Part shown: positions 1-28,223 of the stretch, one piece after another
Position numbering within the stretch: the first letter of the stretch is position 1
Layout: every line of letters begins with the position of its first letter
Assembly (NCBI GenBank): GCA_052168235.1
Contig: JBQLZK010000030.1
Location: forward strand, 1 to 64,000
Source: Thainema sp.
GTDB lineage: Bacteria; Cyanobacteriota; Cyanobacteriia; Phormidesmidales; Phormidesmidaceae
Direction: 5' to 3'
DNA: 64,000 bases
Notes under the pieces: model-generated
Seen by the model: only the letters and a program-made list of their open reading frames with translations
Databases searched by the model: none
What the model was told of the DNA's origin: nothing
Translations under genes and position numbers: made by a program

Positions 1-117
1 CTTCGCTCACCTGCATTTCAGCCTTAGCGACCAAAATTTCTCCGATTCTATACATAGGCCTACCTGCACGTTCGCACATTAATGTGCGAACTGCGACATT
101 TAATGTGCGAATGTACA
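1..117 (-). mobile_element. Probable terminus of a Tn7-like / type V-K CAST-type transposon extending left out of the window
   Basis: Minus strand from 117 reads TGTACA-TTCGCACATTAAATGTCGC-AG-TTCGCACATTAATGTGCGAA: a TGTACA terminus followed by repeated TnsB-site-like motifs. It lies 13 bp beyond the 3' end of the tRNA-Thr fragment. No tns or cas genes are inside the window. Confidence 0.62.
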
Positions 118-129
118 GTAAAACAACAA

Positions 130-180
130 AAGCCGATGGCGGGATTTGAACCCGCGACCGCTCGATTACGAATCGAGTGC
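130..180 (-). repeat. att direct repeat (duplicated 3' portion of tRNA-Thr)
   Basis: AAGCCGATGG...GAATCGAGTGC is identical to 28151-28201 and lacks the first 22 nt of the tRNA. Confidence 0.95.
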
Positions 181-1069: not shown

Positions 1070-3307
1070 GTGACTCCAGATGAACTCAAACAGCTTGAAA
1101 ATGACCTTTGGAAGAGTGCTGATGATTTACGTGCCAATTCGTCGCTAAAGTCCAGTGAGTATGCAACACCTGTATTAGGTTTGATCTTTTTGAGGTTTGT
1201 CGATAACAAGTTTCGCCAGTATAAGGCAGAGATTCAGCAAGAATATGAAGCCTTGCAAGGGGGTAGACGAGAAAAGCCTATTCATGAAATAGCTCTTGCC
1301 AAATGTGGCTTCTATTTGCCGGATCATGCTCGGTATGACTATCTGCTGACGCTGCCAGGGAAAGAGGATATTGCTCAAGCGATCAAGAGGGCAATGGCAA
1401 CCATCGAGGAATATAAGCCGGAGTTGGCAGGTGTATTGCCACAAGATGAATATTTTCGGCTGGCGGGTAAGCGGGATGATGGTCTTTTAAGTGGTGATCA
1501 ATCCGATGGTAGTAACACCCTGCTGCAAAGACTGTTGAAAAATTTCTCAGATATTCCCGTTGATGCCACTGGGGATATGTTTGGGCAAATCTATCAGTAT
1601 TTCCTGCGAAACTTTGCTCTGGCAGAGGGACAAGGTGGCGGAGAGTTTTTCACGCCGGATTCTGTCGTGCGGCTGATGGTTGAAATTGTGGAGCCAAGGC
1701 CAGGGAAGTTGTTTGATCCGGCTTGTGGGTCGGGTGGAATGTTCGTTTGGTCGGGTAAGTACATCCAAGACCATGCGGAGGAAGACGGGACAAACCCCAA
1801 TGATTTTGTGGTGTATGGACAGGAAAAAACGCTAGAGACGGTAAAGCTAGCAAAGATGAATATTGCCATCAATGGCATTCGTGGGCATATTCAACAGGCG
1901 AATACTTACTATGAGGATGTTTTCAACAGCTTTGAAGCGTTCAATAATGTCCTAGCCAATCCACCGTTCAATGTAGATGATGTGAATCTAAGTCGGGTCA
2001 AGGCAGATCGGCGGTTCAATACTTATGGTGTGCCGCAAAAGAAAACGAAGACGAAGAAAAAAGATGAGGGAAAAGAAACCGTTCCCAATGCCAATTATCT
2101 CTGGATTAACCTGTTTGCAACTTCATTGATGCCAGAGGATAACAGAGCAGGTTTAGTCATGGCGAATTCGGCATCGGATGCGCGGCATTCTGAGGCGGAT
2201 ATTCGGCAAACGCTGATTGAGCAGAATTTGATTTACGCAATGCTGACGTTGCCGTCGAATATGTTCTATACGGTGACGCTACCAGCAACGCTATGGTTCT
2301 TCGACAAGGGAAAGGTAGACGAAAAAATTCTGTTTATTGATGCCCGCAATGTGTTTACCCAGATAGACCGTGCTCATCGCGAGTTTATAGAGGAGCAGGT
2401 ACTTAATCTGGGCATGATTAGCCATTTGCGACGAGGTAAACGGCATCGGTTTGTGAATCTAGTTGCCCGCTATTTTCGGCAGGGGATGGAAAGGCTTTGG
2501 GAGAATCAAGAGCAGGTGAAGCCTGTTTCGGCTCAACTGATTGCGGTGCTAGATGAGGATGGCGATCGCACTAAAGGCAAGGAAGCAGCGGTCAATTTTT
2601 TGCAGCGTTGGGACGGTTTTCAGGATTTAGAGACGCAATATCGAGGGTATGCGCAGCAACACATTGCCAAGGTTAATCCGTCTCGCGATGTTCCTTCAGA
2701 TGCTGACTCTTCAGACAGCGGAGAGGATAGGAGTTTTAGAGATTTGCCTGCGTTGAAGGGCAGTGAAGAGAATGAAGCCAGTGTTGATGAGTTGAACCAA
2801 GCACAGCATGAGCTGAGTCAGGCGTTTGAGCCGTTTTTTGCTCAACTGCATAAGGGATTGAAACAGTTAGATAAAACGATCCGTGCCCATGAGACGGCGC
2901 TGATTGAAAAGGCTAAGCAAGAGAGCGGTGGCAAGCGTACTCAAATTGATCGACAGGTTAAGGAACTGAAGGCAACGCTGGAAGAACTGCATCGGGATGT
3001 GAAGTCGGCAGAGTCATATTTTGGGCATATTCGCTGGCTGCAAGAGCGGTTTCCAGCAGCACGGTATGAGGATGTGACTGGGCTGTGCAAGCTGGCAACA
3101 ACCGATGAGGTGAAGGAGCAGGATTATTCGCTGAATCCGGGGCGTTATGTGGGGGTAGTGATTGAGGAGGATGGTAAGACGGAGGAGGAGTTTATCGACG
3201 AAATCTTAGACTTGAATCAGCAGTTGGAAAAGCTGAATCGAGAAGCACACCAGTTGGAACGGGTGATTGCGCATAATGTGAAACAGATATCTGGAGAGGG
3301 AGACTAA
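1070..3307 (+). CDS. hsdM: Type I R-M methyltransferase subunit M
   Basis: LWKSADDLRANS N-terminus, GEFFTP, FDPACGSGG (SAM binding), ANPPFN (catalytic), YSLNPGRYV C-terminus. Confidence 0.93.
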   Translation: MTPDELKQLENDLWKSADDLRANSSLKSSEYATPVLGLIFLRFVDNKFRQYKAEIQQEYEALQGGRREKPIHEIALAKCGFYLPDHARYDYLLTLPGKEDIAQAIKRAMATIEEYKPELAGVLPQDEYFRLAGKRDDGLLSGDQSDGSNTLLQRLLKNFSDIPVDATGDMFGQIYQYFLRNFALAEGQGGGEFFTPDSVVRLMVEIVEPRPGKLFDPACGSGGMFVWSGKYIQDHAEEDGTNPNDFVVYGQEKTLETVKLAKMNIAINGIRGHIQQANTYYEDVFNSFEAFNNVLANPPFNVDDVNLSRVKADRRFNTYGVPQKKTKTKKKDEGKETVPNANYLWINLFATSLMPEDNRAGLVMANSASDARHSEADIRQTLIEQNLIYAMLTLPSNMFYTVTLPATLWFFDKGKVDEKILFIDARNVFTQIDRAHREFIEEQVLNLGMISHLRRGKRHRFVNLVARYFRQGMERLWENQEQVKPVSAQLIAVLDEDGDRTKGKEAAVNFLQRWDGFQDLETQYRGYAQQHIAKVNPSRDVPSDADSSDSGEDRSFRDLPALKGSEENEASVDELNQAQHELSQAFEPFFAQLHKGLKQLDKTIRAHETALIEKAKQESGGKRTQIDRQVKELKATLEELHRDVKSAESYFGHIRWLQERFPAARYEDVTGLCKLATTDEVKEQDYSLNPGRYVGVVIEEDGKTEEEFIDEILDLNQQLEKLNREAHQLERVIAHNVKQISGEGD

Positions 3308-3310
3308 AGG

Positions 3311-3610
3311 ATGCAAACGATTCATGCCAAGGTGCAGGTTGGGACAGATCGCACCCTGCAAGTACAGTTACCAAATGATGTTCCGGTTGGTGAATATGAA
3401 GTTGTGTTGGTGCTGAATGAGGCTCATTCGGCACAGCAGGCATCTGATCCTGCGGATATGTCTCCCACGCAATTGGACGATGACATCGCCACTCGTTGGG
3501 AGCAATGGGTAGCTGAGGTTGAGCAACTTCCCCTATCACCGCAGCCTCCAGAGGGTGATTTTCAGCAGTACTTGGTTGAAAAGTATCGTCAGCAAGGATT
3601 GGACTTGTGA
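3311..3610 (+). CDS. Putative antitoxin of the PIN toxin
   Basis: 99 aa, acidic; LPNDVPVGEYEVVLVL N-terminus; overlaps the PIN gene start (GTGA). Confidence 0.65.
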   Translation: MQTIHAKVQVGTDRTLQVQLPNDVPVGEYEVVLVLNEAHSAQQASDPADMSPTQLDDDIATRWEQWVAEVEQLPLSPQPPEGDFQQYLVEKYRQQGLDL

Positions 3611-4017
3611 TCCTATGTGACACCGGAGTAATGCTTTGTTTGGTAGATCGCCATCAACCCCAACACCAAGCATACATTCGTGCGGTTGGACAACTTGAAA
3701 AGCCGCTCATGACAACTTGGGCCTGTCTGACCGAGGCGATGTATCTGGCGTTCAGCCGTGGTGGATGGCGGATGCAAAGGCAGCTAGCAAAGCTCTTGCT
3801 CAATAATTTTTTGGCGATTTACGACATTCAGCAGGAAGATTACGATCGCCTGTTTGCGCTAATGGAGCAGTATCAAGATCGACCGATGGATTTGGCCGAT
3901 GCCACGCTTGTCTTGACGGCTGAAAGAATGGCAGAAAATCGTATTTTGACCCTCGATTCTGATTTTCTGTTTTACCGTATTGCTGATCAGCAAAGTTTTG
4001 ATGTGATTCAGGTGTAG
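3607..4017 (+). CDS. PIN-domain (VapC-like) toxin
   Basis: ILCDTG, TWACLTEAMYL, MDLADATLV, ILTLDSDF: the PIN acidic residues. Confidence 0.88.
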   Translation: MILCDTGVMLCLVDRHQPQHQAYIRAVGQLEKPLMTTWACLTEAMYLAFSRGGWRMQRQLAKLLLNNFLAIYDIQQEDYDRLFALMEQYQDRPMDLADATLVLTAERMAENRILTLDSDFLFYRIADQQSFDVIQV

Positions 4018-4095
4018 AGAGTTTGGGACTACATTAGGAAGCACGTTAGCTAGAAGGGGTTATTGGAATAACGTAAATGCGATCGCAGGTGACTC

Positions 4096-5349
4096 ATGGG
4101 CAAATGGAAAAATAAGCAAATCCAGGAATTAGGTAGAGTCATCACTGGCAAGACGCCACCCAAAAGCGAAGAAAAATATTTTGATGGTGTGCATCTGTTC
4201 GTGTCTCCAAAGGATTTAGATTGGGACAAAACTTACGTATCAGAAACAGAAACAAGAATATCTAGGCAGGCACTTGATAAGTTCAAAAATCAGGTTATTC
4301 CTGCCAAATCTATTATGTATACGAGCTTAAGCTTTGCTTTTGGCAAGGTCGGGATTGCTAGTGAATCACTACTAACTAATCAGCAAATCAACTCAATAAT
4401 TGTCAACTCTGAACACGATTTTAGATTTGTCTATTATTTACTGCGTGCTAGCCGTCCAATCATTTTCTCCTTTAATTCTGGAATTGATACACCTATTGTT
4501 CCAAAATCAGTTTTTGAGCAAATCAAACTAAAATGTCCCCCACTCCCCATCCAAAAAAAGATCGCGGCGATTCTTTCTGCTTATGATGACCTGATTGAAA
4601 ACAACAATCGCCGCATTGCCCTACTGGAAAAAATGGCAGAGGAAATCTACCGCGAATGGTTTGTGCGGCTGCGCTTTCCGGGGCATGAGCAGGTCACATT
4701 TCACAAAGGCATTCCCGAAGGCTGGGAAATCAAACCATTTAGCCAGCTTGTTCTAATTAATCCACGCGAGAAATTGAATAAGTATGAGTCCAAGCCTTTT
4801 GTAGGTATGGGAGATTTATCATTGACATCAATGTTTTTTTCTTATAGTGAACATCGGCAAGGAAATTCTGGCTCAAAATTTAGAAATAATGATGTCCTTT
4901 TGCCTCGAATAACACCCTCTTTGGAAAATGGAAAACGTGGTTATGTCATGTGTTTGGAAGATAACCAGGTTGCGTTTGGATCAACTGAATTCATTGTGAT
5001 TAGAGCAAAAAATTTATGCTCTGAATATATCTACTTCTTGACTTGCCTAGCTGAGTTTAGAACACATGCGGAACAAAGTATGGTTGGTGCTTCCGGTCGG
5101 CAAAGAGTACATGAAGGTTGTTTCGATTGTTTCTTCGTTAAAGTTCCGCCACAAGGTTTAATGCAGCAGTTCTCAGAAATTATTAAACCATTTTTCTCGA
5201 AAATAAAAGCTCTCTACAGCTCGAATGAAAATCTACAACAGACCCGCGATCGCTTCCTTACTCGTCTCATCTCCGGCAAACTCTCCGTCGAAGACCTCGA
5301 TATCCAATTTCCGCCCAGCATGACAGCAGAGGTATCCCATGACGGATAA
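4096..5349 (+). CDS. hsdS: Type I R-M specificity subunit S
   Basis: Two TRDs; conserved PPLPIQKKIAAILSAYDDLIENN and RDRFLTRLISG segments. Confidence 0.92.
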   Translation: MGKWKNKQIQELGRVITGKTPPKSEEKYFDGVHLFVSPKDLDWDKTYVSETETRISRQALDKFKNQVIPAKSIMYTSLSFAFGKVGIASESLLTNQQINSIIVNSEHDFRFVYYLLRASRPIIFSFNSGIDTPIVPKSVFEQIKLKCPPLPIQKKIAAILSAYDDLIENNNRRIALLEKMAEEIYREWFVRLRFPGHEQVTFHKGIPEGWEIKPFSQLVLINPREKLNKYESKPFVGMGDLSLTSMFFSYSEHRQGNSGSKFRNNDVLLPRITPSLENGKRGYVMCLEDNQVAFGSTEFIVIRAKNLCSEYIYFLTCLAEFRTHAEQSMVGASGRQRVHEGCFDCFFVKVPPQGLMQQFSEIIKPFFSKIKALYSSNENLQQTRDRFLTRLISGKLSVEDLDIQFPPSMTAEVSHDG

Positions 5350-6346
5350 CCTCCAGCCCCAATTCACCGAAGTCCTCACCCTGATTCAAACCTCACAAAC
5401 CCAAGTCATCACCACTGCCAACCAAGCCCTGATCCAGCTTTACTGGGCCATTGGCCAATACATCAGCCAGCGGATGCAAACCGCCGAATGGGGACAAAAG
5501 ACCATTGAACAACTGGCAACCTTCATTCAAACCCAGGAACCCGGCATCAAAGGATTTGAGCGGCGCAATCTCTACCGGATGCGTCAGTTTTATGAGACCT
5601 ATCCCGATGCCGAATTTGTGTCATCACTGCTGACACAATTAAGCTGGACGCATCACTGCATCCTCATGTCTCGCTGCAAATCGCCGGAAGAAAGACAGTT
5701 TTATCTGCAACTTGCCACCAAAGAACGCTACAGCACCCGCGAACTAGATCGCCAAATCAACAGCGGCATCTTTGAACGAACTCGGCTTGCTGATGTCAAA
5801 CTCTCCTCAACCTTACAAACCCGATCTCAGCCCATTTCCGGCGTTTTCCGCGATAGCTACGTTCTCGACTTCCTCAACTTACCCCCTAGCCATTCTGAAA
5901 ACGACCTCAAGACCGCATTGATCTACTGCCTCAAAGACTTCATTCTCGAACTGGGGCGCGATTTCACCTTTCTCGGCGAAGAATATCGAATTCAAGTCGG
6001 CAACAGCGATTTCTTTATTGACCTGCTCTTTTACCATCGCGAACTCCAGAGCCTCGTTGCCTTTGAGCTGAAAATCGACAAATTCAAACCTGAATACCTG
6101 GGGCAACTCGAATTTTATTTGGAAGCCCTCGATCGCGACATCAAGAAACCCCACGAAAACCCCAGTATCGGCGTTTTACTCTGTCGTGACAAAGATGACG
6201 AAGTCGTGGAATACGCCACCAGCCGCTCTCTCAGCCCCACCGTTGTTGCTGAGTACGAAATCAAGCTTATCCCCAAAGAAACCCTGCGACGTAAACTCAA
6301 CGAATTCTATGAGCTTTTAGCTACTAATGATAATGATGTGGATTGA
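5339..6346 (+). CDS. YhcG/DUF1016-family PD-(D/E)xK nuclease-domain protein
   Basis: LYWAIG, RNLYRMRQFY, LSWTHH, FIDLLFYHR..LVAFELK, YLGQLEFYL motifs. Confidence 0.88.
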   Translation: MTDNLQPQFTEVLTLIQTSQTQVITTANQALIQLYWAIGQYISQRMQTAEWGQKTIEQLATFIQTQEPGIKGFERRNLYRMRQFYETYPDAEFVSSLLTQLSWTHHCILMSRCKSPEERQFYLQLATKERYSTRELDRQINSGIFERTRLADVKLSSTLQTRSQPISGVFRDSYVLDFLNLPPSHSENDLKTALIYCLKDFILELGRDFTFLGEEYRIQVGNSDFFIDLLFYHRELQSLVAFELKIDKFKPEYLGQLEFYLEALDRDIKKPHENPSIGVLLCRDKDDEVVEYATSRSLSPTVVAEYEIKLIPKETLRRKLNEFYELLATNDNDVD

Positions 6347-6487: not shown

Positions 6488-9400
6488 ATGCCTAATTTCA
6501 TCACCGAAGACGACATCGAACAGGCAACCTTGCGAAAGCTCAACGCCTACGGCTTCCAACAGCTCAACTGCAACACTGCCAACCCAGACGACCTCAACGA
6601 TGGCTCAAATCGGAGTAACAAACGCGATGTCATCCTCAGCGATCGCCTCAAAGCCGCTGCATTGCGCCTCAATCCCGACATTCCCGAAACCGCCATCGAC
6701 CAAGCGCTGGCTGTACTGACCAAAAATCGGTCAGCCATGACTGCGATCGCCGCTAACCGTGAACTCGATGGACTGATCCGAGACGGCATCCAAGTCGAAT
6801 ATGAAAACGCCGAAGGTCGCACCGAATACGGACGAGTGCGCGTCATCGACTTCAATGATCCAAGTCCAACAGGCAACAACGAGTTTCTTGCCGTCTCCCA
6901 ATTGTGGATTCAAGGCGACATCTATCGCCGTCCCGATATTCTGCTCTATATCAACGGCTTACCGATTGTCTTTATCGAGTTGAAAAACTCCAACATCAGC
7001 GTCAGAGCTGCTTTTGACAAAAATCTAAACGACTATAAACGCGACATCCCCCAACTGTTCCACACCAACGCCGTTTGCATCTTGTCCAATGCCCTCGAAA
7101 CCAAAATCGGCAGCTTCACTGCCACCTGGGACTACTTCTTTAACTGGCTGAGAGTCGAAGACGAAAAGGAAAAAGTTGACCGAGCGCAAATCAAAGGCAG
7201 TGGCACGAGCCTCGAACGGGCGATCGATGGTCTGTGCCAACCTGCCAAACTACTGGATTACATCGAAAATTTCGTCATTTTTCACAAAGAAACCCAGAAA
7301 ATCATTGCTCAAAATCACCAGTTCATCGGCGTGAATCGAGCTATCGAGTCATTTATTCACCGTCAGGATAAAGACGGCAAACTAGGGGTTTTCTGGCATA
7401 CCCAAGGCTCTGGTAAGAGCTTTTCAATGATTTTCTATGTCCGCAAAATCTTTCGCAAACTGACGGGTAATTTCACCTTCGTCGTTGTCACTGACCGAGA
7501 CGACCTGGATCGGCAGATTTACAACAACTTTCTCAATACCCAAACCGTTGATAAAACCGAAGCCGCTCAACCCAGTAGCAGTCAAGACTTACGCGACACT
7601 TTGGCGAAGAATAAACGCATCGTCTTTACCCTGATCCACAAATTCCGCTACGACAAAGGCAAAAAGTATCCCGTATTGTGCGATCGCGATGACATCATCG
7701 TAATTGTGGATGAGGCCCACCGCACCCAATACAAATCCCTAGCGGAAAACATGCGGGCAGGCTTGCCCAATGCCAACTATCTGGCGTTTACAGGTACTCC
7801 TCTGCTTGGCAAAGATCGCAAGACTAACGCTTGGTTTGGCGATTACGTCAGCGAATACAATTTCTCTCAATCAATGGACGATGGCGCAACCGTGCCCTTG
7901 TTCTACGAAAAGCGCGTGCCAGAGGTGCTAATCCAGAACGAGGACTTGAGCGAAGAGTTCTATCAAATCCTGGAAGACGAAAACCTCGACGATACCCAGC
8001 AGGCCAAACTAGAGCGCAAATTTTCCAGCGAACTGGAAGTCATCAAACGCGATGATCGACTCAAACGGATTGCCGAAGATATCGTTTATCACTTTCCCCG
8101 TCGTGGCTATCTGGGCAAAGGCTTAGTCGTCTCCGTCGATAAGTTCACCGCCGTCAAGATGTACGAGAAGGTTCAACGTCGCTGGAAAGAAGAAATCAAG
8201 CATCTGGTTGGACGGATCAAGCAATCCAAAAACGACATCGAAAAAGCCCGACTCAAGAAGATCCTCAACTTCATGCGTGAAACTGAGATGGCGGTCGTCA
8301 TCAGTTTTGAAAATAGCGAAAAAGAAGTCGAGCGCTTTGCTAAAGAGGGTTTAGACATCAAACCTCATCGAGATCGCTATAACACCGTCGATGCTCAAGG
8401 TCATGGGGTTGAAGATCAGTTCAAAAATAACGAACATCCCCTACGCTTAGTTTTTGTTTGTGCCATGTGGCTCACTGGGTTTGACGTGCCCAGTTTGTCC
8501 ACGGTCTATCTCGACAAACCGATGAAAGACCATACCTTGATGCAAACCATCACCCGTGCCAATCGCGTTTGCGCCTACACCATCAATAGCGTCACCAAAA
8601 AGAACGGCGAAATCATCGACTATTACAACGTCTTCCGTAATATGCGGCGGGCACTCAAAGACTATGCCTTGGGCGATGACGGCAACACCGACGAAACCGA
8701 TCTCGACTCCCCCATCCAACAAAAAGCTAACCTGTTTGACCTGCTCGATGATGCGATCGCGCAAGGGTTAAGCTTTTGCCGCTCTCACGATATCGACTTG
8801 GAAAGCCTATCTAAACAAGATGACATCTTTCAGAACTTGAGCCAGTTCAACGATTTTGCAGATATTCTCTTGAGTCGGGATGAATGGCGTAAAGAATTCG
8901 CGGTATACGAAAATACCATCACCTCACTCTATGAAGCCTGCAAACCCGAAATTCTCAGTCAGCCAAGGCCATTAGTTAACGTCTTCCAATACCTACGCGG
9001 TATCATCGACAGCATTCTAGATCGACAAAATACCGATGCTGTCAGCCTGAAAATTGCTGACCTGCTGGACGAAAGCGTTATCACTGAAGAACAAGACTTT
9101 AGAGAAAAAGAGTACGGGGCAGAATACAAGATTGTCCAAACAGGTAAAACGTGGGATTTGAGCCATACTGACTTTGAGAAGCTCAAAACAGACTTCAAAG
9201 CCGCAAAACATAAGCACATTGAGATTGCCCACCTGCGAAGCTTCATTGAGGACAAACTCAAGAAGATGCTGCAACAGAACGTCACCCGTGTCGATTTTGC
9301 CCAACGCTTCCAAACCATTATTGATCGATATAACTCTGGTGCATCGGCCACTGAAAACGATTTCGAGGCACTGGTCAACTTTGCCGAAAATCTAAAAGAG

Positions 9401-26751: not shown

Positions 26752-27975
26752 CTAAATCTCCGTAGGTCTTAATTGCTCAAGTCTAAGCTTATCTAGATAT
26801 TTTTCCTCGATTACCTTGCTTGAGTTGCCTACCCATCGAGCGATAGTAGTCGAGGAGTTACCAGGTCGTCCGTCAACAGGCATGGCTTGTAAGGTAATGA
26901 ACGTATCACGACAGTTGTAGGGAGTCATTTTCACTCCGTCCTTCGTATCTAGCCCTAAACCCGTGAGAATCGTTTTCCACGCGCGATCGCTAAAGTTAGA
27001 CTCGCCGATCGCACCTCCTTTCGGAGAAGGAAATACCAAATCCTCTGGATTGGGAGACTCAGGTTTAATCGATTGTAGTAGTGCTTGCAATTTGGGAGTA
27101 CACGCAAACCAGCGTCTTACACCTGTTTTCGTGGTTTTCCGTCTAACTAACCTACCTGATACCTCAACGATACTTTCGTGAAAGTGGACTCTACTGCAAT
27201 CAGGAGTAACGCTTCCCCACCGTAAACCGATCGCTTCACAGGGTCTACAGCCAGTCCAAAAGAGGAATTTGACAAATGGTGAATAGAACCGATAATTCAT
27301 CCCTGGTCTGACATCATTTTCAAACGCTTCGATGATCCGATCTCGCTCTTCAACCGAGAAGGACATTGGAGGAGCAGGTTTAGTGGGTTCCAGTTCCTTA
27401 TACATTCCCTCGAACGGGTTCGCCTCAATCATCCCGTGCTTAACTGCCCAGTTGCAGCAAGCAGATAACTGCATCAAAGCCCGTCGAGCTTGAGACTGAG
27501 TTGTAACTTGTAATAGTTCCATACGGAATTTCAAAGCGTCTTGCAACCCATCTGTTGAACACTTCTCTAGATAGCTTGTTACTGGCTGATAAGTTCCATT
27601 AATCGTTTTTGGAGAAACATGCGGGCTTTTGTAATCAAAATACTCTGCCCATAACGCCTTAAGTTTTGGGATAGGTTTCGGTGCGATGTCTGGGTCAGCT
27701 ACCGACAAAGATGTTTCTGGTTTGTATTTAGCAAGGGTTGGGTCGAAGTAGTCTCCACCGTGAGCTAGTTGTAAACGCATATCGTCTTCAATCTGCCTAG
27801 CTCGTGCTTCTGCGGCTCTCCGATTTGCTTTGGTATCCGGTAAGCCTAATCCGAGAGAGTAGCGTTGCCCATTGAATCGAAAGCGCAACCGCAACCGCCC
27901 CCGAAAGGTTTCTATGCTTACAGTGCCCTTTGGATTCTTGCCTGATGGGGTTTTATCGCTATCACTGTTAAACAT
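26752..27975 (-). CDS. Tyrosine recombinase/integrase with N-terminal arm-binding domain
   Basis: GRLRLRFRFNGQRYSLGLGL arm domain; TGCRPCEA, TKT, YNCRDTF, WVGNS, terminal Tyr; likely start ATG 27975. Confidence 0.92.
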   Translation of the reverse strand: MFNSDSDKTPSGKNPKGTVSIETFRGRLRLRFRFNGQRYSLGLGLPDTKANRRAAEARARQIEDDMRLQLAHGGDYFDPTLAKYKPETSLSVADPDIAPKPIPKLKALWAEYFDYKSPHVSPKTINGTYQPVTSYLEKCSTDGLQDALKFRMELLQVTTQSQARRALMQLSACCNWAVKHGMIEANPFEGMYKELEPTKPAPPMSFSVEERDRIIEAFENDVRPGMNYRFYSPFVKFLFWTGCRPCEAIGLRWGSVTPDCSRVHFHESIVEVSGRLVRRKTTKTGVRRWFACTPKLQALLQSIKPESPNPEDLVFPSPKGGAIGESNFSDRAWKTILTGLGLDTKDGVKMTPYNCRDTFITLQAMPVDGRPGNSSTTIARWVGNSSKVIEEKYLDKLRLEQLRPTEI

Positions 27976-28000
27976 GGTTTTCACCTGGAACGCTTGTTCT

Positions 28001-28031
28001 TGATACCCAGATGATACCCAAGTGATACCCA
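28001..28031 (+). promoter_or_regulatory. Putative integrase arm-type sites (3x TGATACCCA, 11-bp period)
   Basis: TGATACCCA at 28001, 28012 and 28023, between the integrase start and att. Confidence 0.7.
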
Positions 28032-28110
28032 AAACGGTCTAATCTACCCCAATCTTTACCCCATTTTTAGAACAATCGTATTGTCAACATGTAATATCCC
28101 TTAATCAAGG

Positions 28111-28143: not shown

Positions 28144-28151
28144 GACTTGTA

Positions 28152-28223
28152 AGCCGATGGCGGGATTTGAACCCGCGACCGCTCGATTACGAATCGAGTG
28201 CTCTACCACTGAGCCACATCGGC
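28152..28223 (-). tRNA. trnT: tRNA-Thr(CGT)
   Basis: GCCGATG...CATCGGC acceptor stem, CTCGA-TTCGTAA-TCGAG anticodon arm, GGTTCAAATCC T-arm; CCA not encoded. Confidence 0.96.

Follow-up and report, generated by a model that had tools for sequence, protein, structure and literature searches.

A probable CAST end next to a displaced part of tRNA-Thr

Positions 66 to 117 of the window, i.e., of the whole stretch of DNA analyzed here, which covers the initial 64 kb of contig C30 of genome G000, are very probably an inert fossil consisting of the outermost 42 to 52 bp of a type V-K CAST end, namely, the end on the side of the tRNA and the CRISPR array. As read directly from the window sequence, TGTACA is located at 112 to 117 and repeats of TTCGCACATTA follow inside this terminus. 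On the minus strand, the elements are arranged in the order TGTACA (117-112), TTCGCACATTAAATGTCGCA (repeat 1, 111-92), a single G, and TTCGCACATTAATGTGCGAA (repeat 2, 90-71), the latter being a perfect 20-nt palindrome. The displaced tRNA has its 3′ end at position 131, leaving a gap of 13 nt to TGTACA (118-130, base 130 counted); residues 118 to 129, between the relic and the att copy described below, represent the original tRNA-Thr 3′ trailer. Both the window sequence and the 51-nt repeat that defines the att copies thus confirm an earlier note, in which a TGTACA end with repeats had been placed 13 nt past the tRNA 3′ end. The pentamer GTAAA at 118 to 122 is the putative 5-bp target duplication of the CAST insertion.

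The relic possesses a TGTAC(A/G) terminus and direct repeats of the TnsB-binding type, and it matches the intact CAST end of the related genome G103. The local alignment of the two covers only nucleotides 1 to 42, stopping near window position 76; the relic comprises the terminus and two repeats, and the later repeats of the intact end are missing. For searches, a 26-mer was used with up to three mismatches allowed. It had one match in the window and none in 100 shuffles of the window (0/100), and the reversed 26-mer, serving as a control, gave 0 matches, versus 19 for the real one, in 173 genomes of the family. A short 11-mer alone was not significant, with 5 matches versus 2.9 expected and 18 of 100 shuffles reaching 5.

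Homing geometry at tRNA-Thr(CGT)

The one tRNA gene identified in the window, an intact tRNA-Thr(CGT), is located on the minus strand at 28152 to 28223, its 3′ 50 nt being supplied by the integrase island. Its D-loop contains a GTA PAM (28206-28204) followed by the 17-nt protospacer GAGCACTCGATTCGTAA (28203-28187; PAM and protospacer together 28187 to 28206, minus strand), for which matching spacers are present in relatives. When the island was removed in silico and the tRNA parts were joined by reference, this GTA, with GAGCACTCGATTCGTAA directly after it, was positioned 65 nt from TGTACA, which is a homing distance of V-K CASTs and agrees with the count given in the earlier note. At all 13 related loci with an intact tRNA (13/13), the D-loop GTA is likewise the PAM, at 56 to 68 nt from the end.

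The att copy at 130 to 180 is the displaced original 3′ part of tRNA-Thr(CGT). It reads ...TTTC followed by GCACTCGATTCG, and the protospacer 17-mer matches it at position 166 with two mismatches. The proposal that this left copy lacks a GTN motif proved correct, and the first two protospacer bases are missing as well. Downstream of the intact tRNA-Thr, the window sequence contains no TGTACA, in line with the further proposal that the rebuilt gene is an unoccupied homing site.

The same end in related genomes

When the 173 family genomes, G000 among them, were scanned with the 26-mer (at most three mismatches), 19 copies were detected in 14 genomes; the other 159 of the 173 are devoid of it. 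As many as 17 of the 19 copies are abutted by a tRNA gene or a tRNA fragment. Specifically, 13 are preceded, at a distance of 3 to 16 nt, by a complete tRNA gene oriented towards the copy (Thr-CGT in six cases, Ala-CGC in three, Val-TAC in two, and Phe and Cys in one each), and four abut a tRNA 3′ fragment, i.e., the window copy, L009, L011, and L010 (the last recognized by eye only); the fragments at L009 and L011 correspond to nucleotides 21 to 72 of tRNA-Thr. The two copies without a tRNA, L024 and L025, are far inverted ends, and the opposite end is in each case found at a tRNA (G169, G091).

Relatives also reveal to which kind of element the end belongs. In G103, the copy follows tRNA-Ala, and further inward there are more repeats of the same type, a truncated repeat with a spacer, four CRISPR repeats, and cas12k. 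The spacer beside the truncated repeat matches tRNA-Ala with one mismatch, and Cas12k (661 aa; NF038191, 736 bits, E 2e-221) is encoded 1.07 kb inside the copy, reading towards the end. A full cas12k gene is also present in G055, 1.1 kb from its 26-mer copy. A truncated repeat plus a 17-nt spacer for the adjoining tRNA was detected by a scripted search at 5 of the 13 intact-tRNA loci and, in addition, in G015 and G019. The Thr spacer GAGCACTCGATTCGTAA occurs with 0 mismatches in three genomes, i.e., in G052, where it lies at tRNA-Thr, and in G015 and G019; the short tRNA spacer that had been predicted thus exists in relatives, but G000 has no homing spacer.

According to passages in PMC9938897 (see also PMC11406308), V-K CASTs of cyanobacteria have their left end downstream of a tRNA gene with the array pointing at the tRNA, and employ a 17-nt anchor spacer, a GTN PAM, and a distance of 46 to 82 nt. 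Because cas12k, a CRISPR array, and a truncated repeat with a 17-nt tRNA spacer accompany the same end in relatives, and in view of this published architecture, the end is assigned to the tRNA-proximal, array-side ("left") type of V-K CASTs, as had been proposed for it. We regard it as extremely improbable that the end derives from a CRISPR-less Tn7/Tn5053-like element or, without any transposon, from a hairpin of the tRNA trailer. It is true that G000 has tns genes and no cas12k and that the palindrome at 71 to 90 could fold within a tRNA trailer, yet the same end adjoins cas12k, arrays, and tRNA-matching spacers in relatives, it follows five tRNA species while being absent from 159 of the 173 family genomes, and inverted second copies mark the far ends of elements in G169 and G091.

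The occurrence of far ends bears on another reading, according to which positions 65 to 117 constitute a two-ended miniature of 53 bp with one terminal TnsB site per end, the two sites facing each other and being left by an internal deletion. On the plus strand, 65 to 90 read TGCACG-TTCGCACATTAATGTGCGAA, which by eye resembles TGTAC(A/G)-TTCGCACATTAAATGTCGCA apart from one gap and a few differing bases, and the far ends of complete elements (L024, L025) share their first 37 to 43 nt with tRNA-side ends. However, no 5-bp duplication borders the segment (TTACC or CTACC to the left, GTAAA to the right), none of the other 16 tRNA-side copies has such a form, and repeat 2 can equally be taken for a regular direct repeat, the second or third, that has changed at two positions. 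A miniature therefore appears unlikely, and we retain the interpretation of 66 to 117 as the remnant of a single CAST end.

Overall, the relics form a series leading from complete elements via ends with a homing spacer to bare stretches of 25 to 57 nt. Among the 17 tRNA-side copies, seven have kept the homing spacer, and a full cas12k gene is found alongside only two. In the family as a whole, 35 of the 173 genomes contain cas12k; neither genome of the genus to which G000 belongs does.

Absence of the CAST body from G000

Neither HMM nor tblastn searches detected cas12k in G000, whose assembly of 205 contigs is 99.99% complete as judged by marker genes. The Thr 17-mer is present in G000 only in the tRNA and in the att copy, and neither an exact truncated repeat nor an anchor spacer was found there; a scan for half CRISPR repeats at four mismatches returned noise only, this threshold being too loose. 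A fuzzy search with the end repeats revealed no second matching end in G000. The other copies in this genome are two further relics, one of approximately 45 nt after tRNA-Phe (C27:70212-70237) and one of 26 nt after tRNA-Cys (C4:7553-7578), located 11 and 13 nt, respectively, past their tRNA 3′ ends. In no end copy of G000 is GTAAA found beside TGTACA, and hence a second inverted end with the 5-bp duplication is lacking in this genome, as are, for the window element, cas12k, a CRISPR array with an anchor spacer, and a tnsB-tnsC-tniQ set at a far end.

Two tnsB-tnsC-tniQ sets are nevertheless encoded in G000, as identified with TniQ and Mu-transposase HMMs, both unlinked to the window. The set at C136:773-3973 encodes proteins of 585, 301, and 179 aa; upstream of its tnsB lie repeats that differ from those of the relic (TGTCGTGTGCCACGG...). 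The set at C117:4342-7183 is truncated (501, 278, and 186 aa), its tnsB being cut off beside fragments of another Tn3-type transposase; since tnsB is truncated, the ends of this set are unreadable, and it may be related to the relic end. The TnsB proteins of C117 and C136 share only 38 to 57% identity with those of relatives, and in G103 tnsB is located on another contig. As a separate observation, both sets have V-K-like sizes although the genome is devoid of cas12k, and an ORF that by eye resembles IS630 lies at the start of contig C117.

A Tn3-family repeat at the start of the contig

The earlier note had placed a CAST to the left of the window. Instead, positions 1 to 60 represent the terminal inverted repeat of a Tn3-family element, 98% identical to C123:3197-3138, and it is because of this repeat that contig C30 starts at position 1. 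A complete copy of 3.49 kb is located at C123:3138-6625. It encodes a transposase of 994 aa with DUF4158 and DDE_Tnp_Tn3 domains (913 bits on NF033527) as its only ORF of 80 aa or more and is bordered by inverted repeats of approximately 45 bp. The 40-nt core of the inverted repeat was found at only four places in G000: two are the ends of the C123 copy, and the other two are the C30 start and the C40 end.

A target duplication of 5 bp is typical of the Tn3 family. The pentamer TACCT at 61 to 65 is such a duplication, with its second copy immediately preceding the inverted repeat at the C40 end; no duplication results when the four flanks are paired otherwise. Consequently, the window probably continues through one copy of the Tn3-family element into the end of C40, whose last 20 kb carry housekeeping genes (psiE-like, a MerR-CbiC fusion, and pentapeptide, Na/H exchanger, and arginase genes). 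This arrangement of C40, the Tn3-family element, and C30 appears the most likely one and is deduced from the contig ends and the 5-bp duplication rather than from a read across the 3.5-kb repeat. All hallmarks of the family, i.e., a DDE_Tn3 transposase, inverted repeats, and a 5-bp duplication, were thus found, with the duplication at the C40/C30 copy and not at the C123 copy. The latter is flanked by TGCCC (3133-3137) and GCTTT (6626-6630), so it lacks a 5-bp duplication, possibly because copies recombined or because the assembly was routed through the repeat.

These data can be set against the reading that an intact or largely intact V-K CAST lies to the left of the window and is masked by the contig break. 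The window does begin at a contig end inside a repeat, tnsB-tnsC-tniQ genes are present on small contigs of G000, and a CAST may be hidden in unassembled repeats of the 205-contig assembly. However, the searches of G000 revealed neither cas12k (HMM, tblastn) nor an anchor spacer, an exact truncated repeat, or another matching end; the likeness of the relic to the intact end is limited to 42 nt and ceases ahead of the Tn3-family repeat; the TACCT duplication ties the window to the housekeeping contig C40; and the C136 set ends in other repeats (TGTCGTGTGCCACGG...). A masked element of this type is therefore very unlikely. Measured by what the earlier note itself had named as speaking against its proposal, the CAST is absent, and only the fossil end remains.

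The integrase island

The island is delimited by a perfect direct repeat of 51 nt (130-180 and 28151-28201) and has a size of 28,021 bp from repeat to repeat. Its interior, at 181 to 28150, carries defence cargo as annotated by profiles, including a type I restriction-modification (R-M) system (hsdM/S/R), PIN, YhcG, and SocA/Panacea genes, an IS256-type transposase, a protein combining caspase, nSTAND1, and pentapeptide parts, a P4-type primase, and an excisionase-like gene. The gene for a divergent tyrosine integrase (26752 to 28032, minus strand; Arm-DNA-bind_2, E 4e-10) is located beside the rebuilt tRNA, and its product has weak matches to XerC/XerD (E 1e-5, below the curated cut-off). Thus, direct repeats of the tRNA 3′ part and a tyrosine recombinase with a weak XerC/D match next to the intact tRNA identify the segment as a tRNA-targeting integrase island.

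Two minor features of the island were observed. Direct repeats of the form TGATACCCA(N2)TGATACCCAA at 223 to 245, 28001 to 28023, and 28012 to 28034, just inside both island ends, are candidate arm-type binding sites of the integrase. Furthermore, the type I R-M operon accommodates at 3311 to 6346 a PIN-domain gene, with a small ORF upstream of it, and a YhcG/DUF1016 nuclease gene, both positioned between or beside hsdM, hsdS, and hsdR.

Order of events

The relic is located outside the att repeats of the island and remains joined to the former 3′ part of the tRNA. Had a CAST homed once the island was in place, it would have landed inside the island, past the rebuilt tRNA, where no such end is present; moreover, the old tRNA copy has no PAM and could not be targeted. 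Both arguments indicate that the CAST inserted first, and with this good support we infer that its insertion preceded the island. The sister genome G171, having an intact tRNA-Thr followed by a relic of 37 nt and no island, also conforms to the order suggested earlier, in which the integrase element came later. The weight of G171 for the timing is reduced, since the tRNA-to-end spacing (13 nt in G000 versus 6 nt in G171) and the breakpoints differ, and the relics of the two genomes may therefore be independent insertions. In G171, the relic is followed by an SDR gene, the orthologue of which is located on C111 in G000. Collinearity of G000 and G171 ends at the relic, so that the join to C40 finds no confirmation in G171. 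This synteny break inside the relic hints that the CAST body may have been lost in a rearrangement. C40 was also considered as the ancestral neighbour and was rejected on the basis of the G171 synteny, with the SDR gene coming after the relic.

The following sequence of four steps would account for the present arrangement. In step 1, by analogy with relatives, Cas12k and a truncated-repeat crRNA with GAGCACTCGATTCGTAA would have recognized tRNA-Thr(CGT) at the D-loop GTA, and TnsB, TnsC, and TniQ would have inserted the element 65 bp downstream. In step 2, the CAST body would have been lost, i.e., the spacer unit, array, tracrRNA, cas12k, cargo, tniQ-tnsC-tnsB, and the far end, all of which are absent today. 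In step 3, evident from the anatomy of the locus, the tyrosine-integrase island entered by recombination at the 3′-terminal 50 nt of the tRNA, rebuilding the tRNA at the integrase end and moving the old 3′ part together with the relic 28 kb away. In step 4, evident from the target duplication, a Tn3-family transposon inserted at TACCT, a copy of which is kept at 61 to 65 beside the relic. Good support exists for the order of step 1 before step 3, and steps 2 and 4 may each have come before or after step 3.

Relation to known systems

Work on V-K CASTs reportedly includes that of Saito et al. (2021) and Strecker et al. (2019). The window end resembles these elements in its TGTAC(A/G) terminus, its direct repeats of approximately 20 bp, and the D-loop GTA PAM at 65 nt, and its close relatives carry cas12k, an array, and an anchor spacer. 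It differs from them in that only 42 to 52 bp of one end are kept, whereas cas12k, tracrRNA, the array, the anchor spacer, cognate tnsB/C/tniQ genes, the far end, and its target duplication are missing. Tyrosine-integrase genomic islands target tRNA genes, and the island of the window conforms to this type with respect to the 51-nt repeat of the tRNA 3′ part, the integrase beside the rebuilt tRNA, the excisionase-like gene, and the defence cargo. It is otherwise ordinary but landed between a CAST end and its PAM. Similarly, the Tn3-family element agrees with its family in the 994-aa transposase with DUF4158 and DDE_Tn3 domains, the inverted repeats of approximately 45 bp, and the 5-bp target duplication, but at 3.49 kb it has the transposase as the only ORF among those of at least 80 aa.

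V-K CASTs are also covered in the preprint 10.1101/2021.02.06.429022. Degraded V-K CASTs have appeared in print, e.g., with "degenerated" cas12k in a passage of PMC9938897 and with a tracrRNA broken by an IS in a passage of PMC12416283. The relics described here share with them the decay of CASTs in cyanobacterial genomes, which in the passages concerned often proceeds via IS insertions; however, the cases in these passages are broken genes in recognizable elements and not solitary ends of 25 to 57 bp. A narrow literature search retrieved no description of solitary CAST ends, and the supplementary tables of PMC9938897 (118 CAST ends) may already list ends of this 26-mer family.

The present analysis leaves known mechanisms unchanged, as both modes of insertion and their preference for tRNA genes are already well known. 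What emerges is that homing sites hold a readable record of past occupancy, that V-K CASTs frequently decay until a few dozen bases are left, and that one tRNA gene is used in turn by two unrelated modes of insertion, RNA-guided transposition and tyrosine-integrase recombination, in at least two genera. For annotation purposes, the 26-mer is a handy marker of CAST scars.

Recurrence of the split and traces of repeated homing

Two other genomes, G015 and G019, belonging to another genus, likewise have a CAST end that an integrase island has separated from its PAM. In G015, an intact tRNA-Thr lies beside an integrase with 64% identity on one contig, and on another contig a tRNA-Thr fragment (nucleotides 21 to 72) abuts the CAST end, which is accompanied approximately 200 nt inside by a truncated repeat and a perfect Thr spacer; no cas12k was found within 19.8 kb of this end. 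G019 shows the same tRNA-Thr fragment, end, and spacer as G015. The notion of a hotspot served by two mechanisms thus gained support from recurrence, with the G015 integrase at an intact tRNA-Thr and the CAST end at a tRNA fragment.

At four further loci, C4 (L027) and C27 (L021) of G000, L019 (G109), and L013 (G023), stretches of 5 to 11 nt resembling the start of an older end are located between the tRNA and the current end; as judged by eye, these vestiges read TGTACATT, TGTAC, TGTACGTT, and CGTACGTTTGC. They suggest that a newcomer inserted a few base pairs inside a resident end, i.e., serial homing into the same site. A functional role of solitary ends can be imagined as well: located at homing distance, their one or two remaining TnsB-binding repeats might serve as target-immunity decoys that close a tRNA to cognate CASTs, in which case the island would have reopened the site through the clean tRNA-Thr 28 kb away. 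The context for this idea is given by the three relics of G000 (at tRNA-Thr, -Phe, and -Cys) in a genome without cas12k and by the older-end vestiges at four loci; we consider it a long shot.

Two elements with both ends present deserve mention. In G169, two inverted copies of the end (L028, L029; G169:C35:17684-38988) are located 21.3 kb apart, the first of them 12 nt after tRNA-Thr. The interval contains a BREX-2 set (PglW, PglX, PglY, PglZ), a pair consisting of a caspase and an AAA ATPase, and IS5 copies, and it has no tns gene and no cas12k, and its flanks lack a 5-bp duplication (AGAGA versus AAAGT); it may be a nonautonomous or decayed CAST shell with defence cargo. In G091, the outer flanks of L016, on the tRNA-Ala side, and of L024, at the far end, share 9 bp (CAAACCATC) instead of the usual 5.
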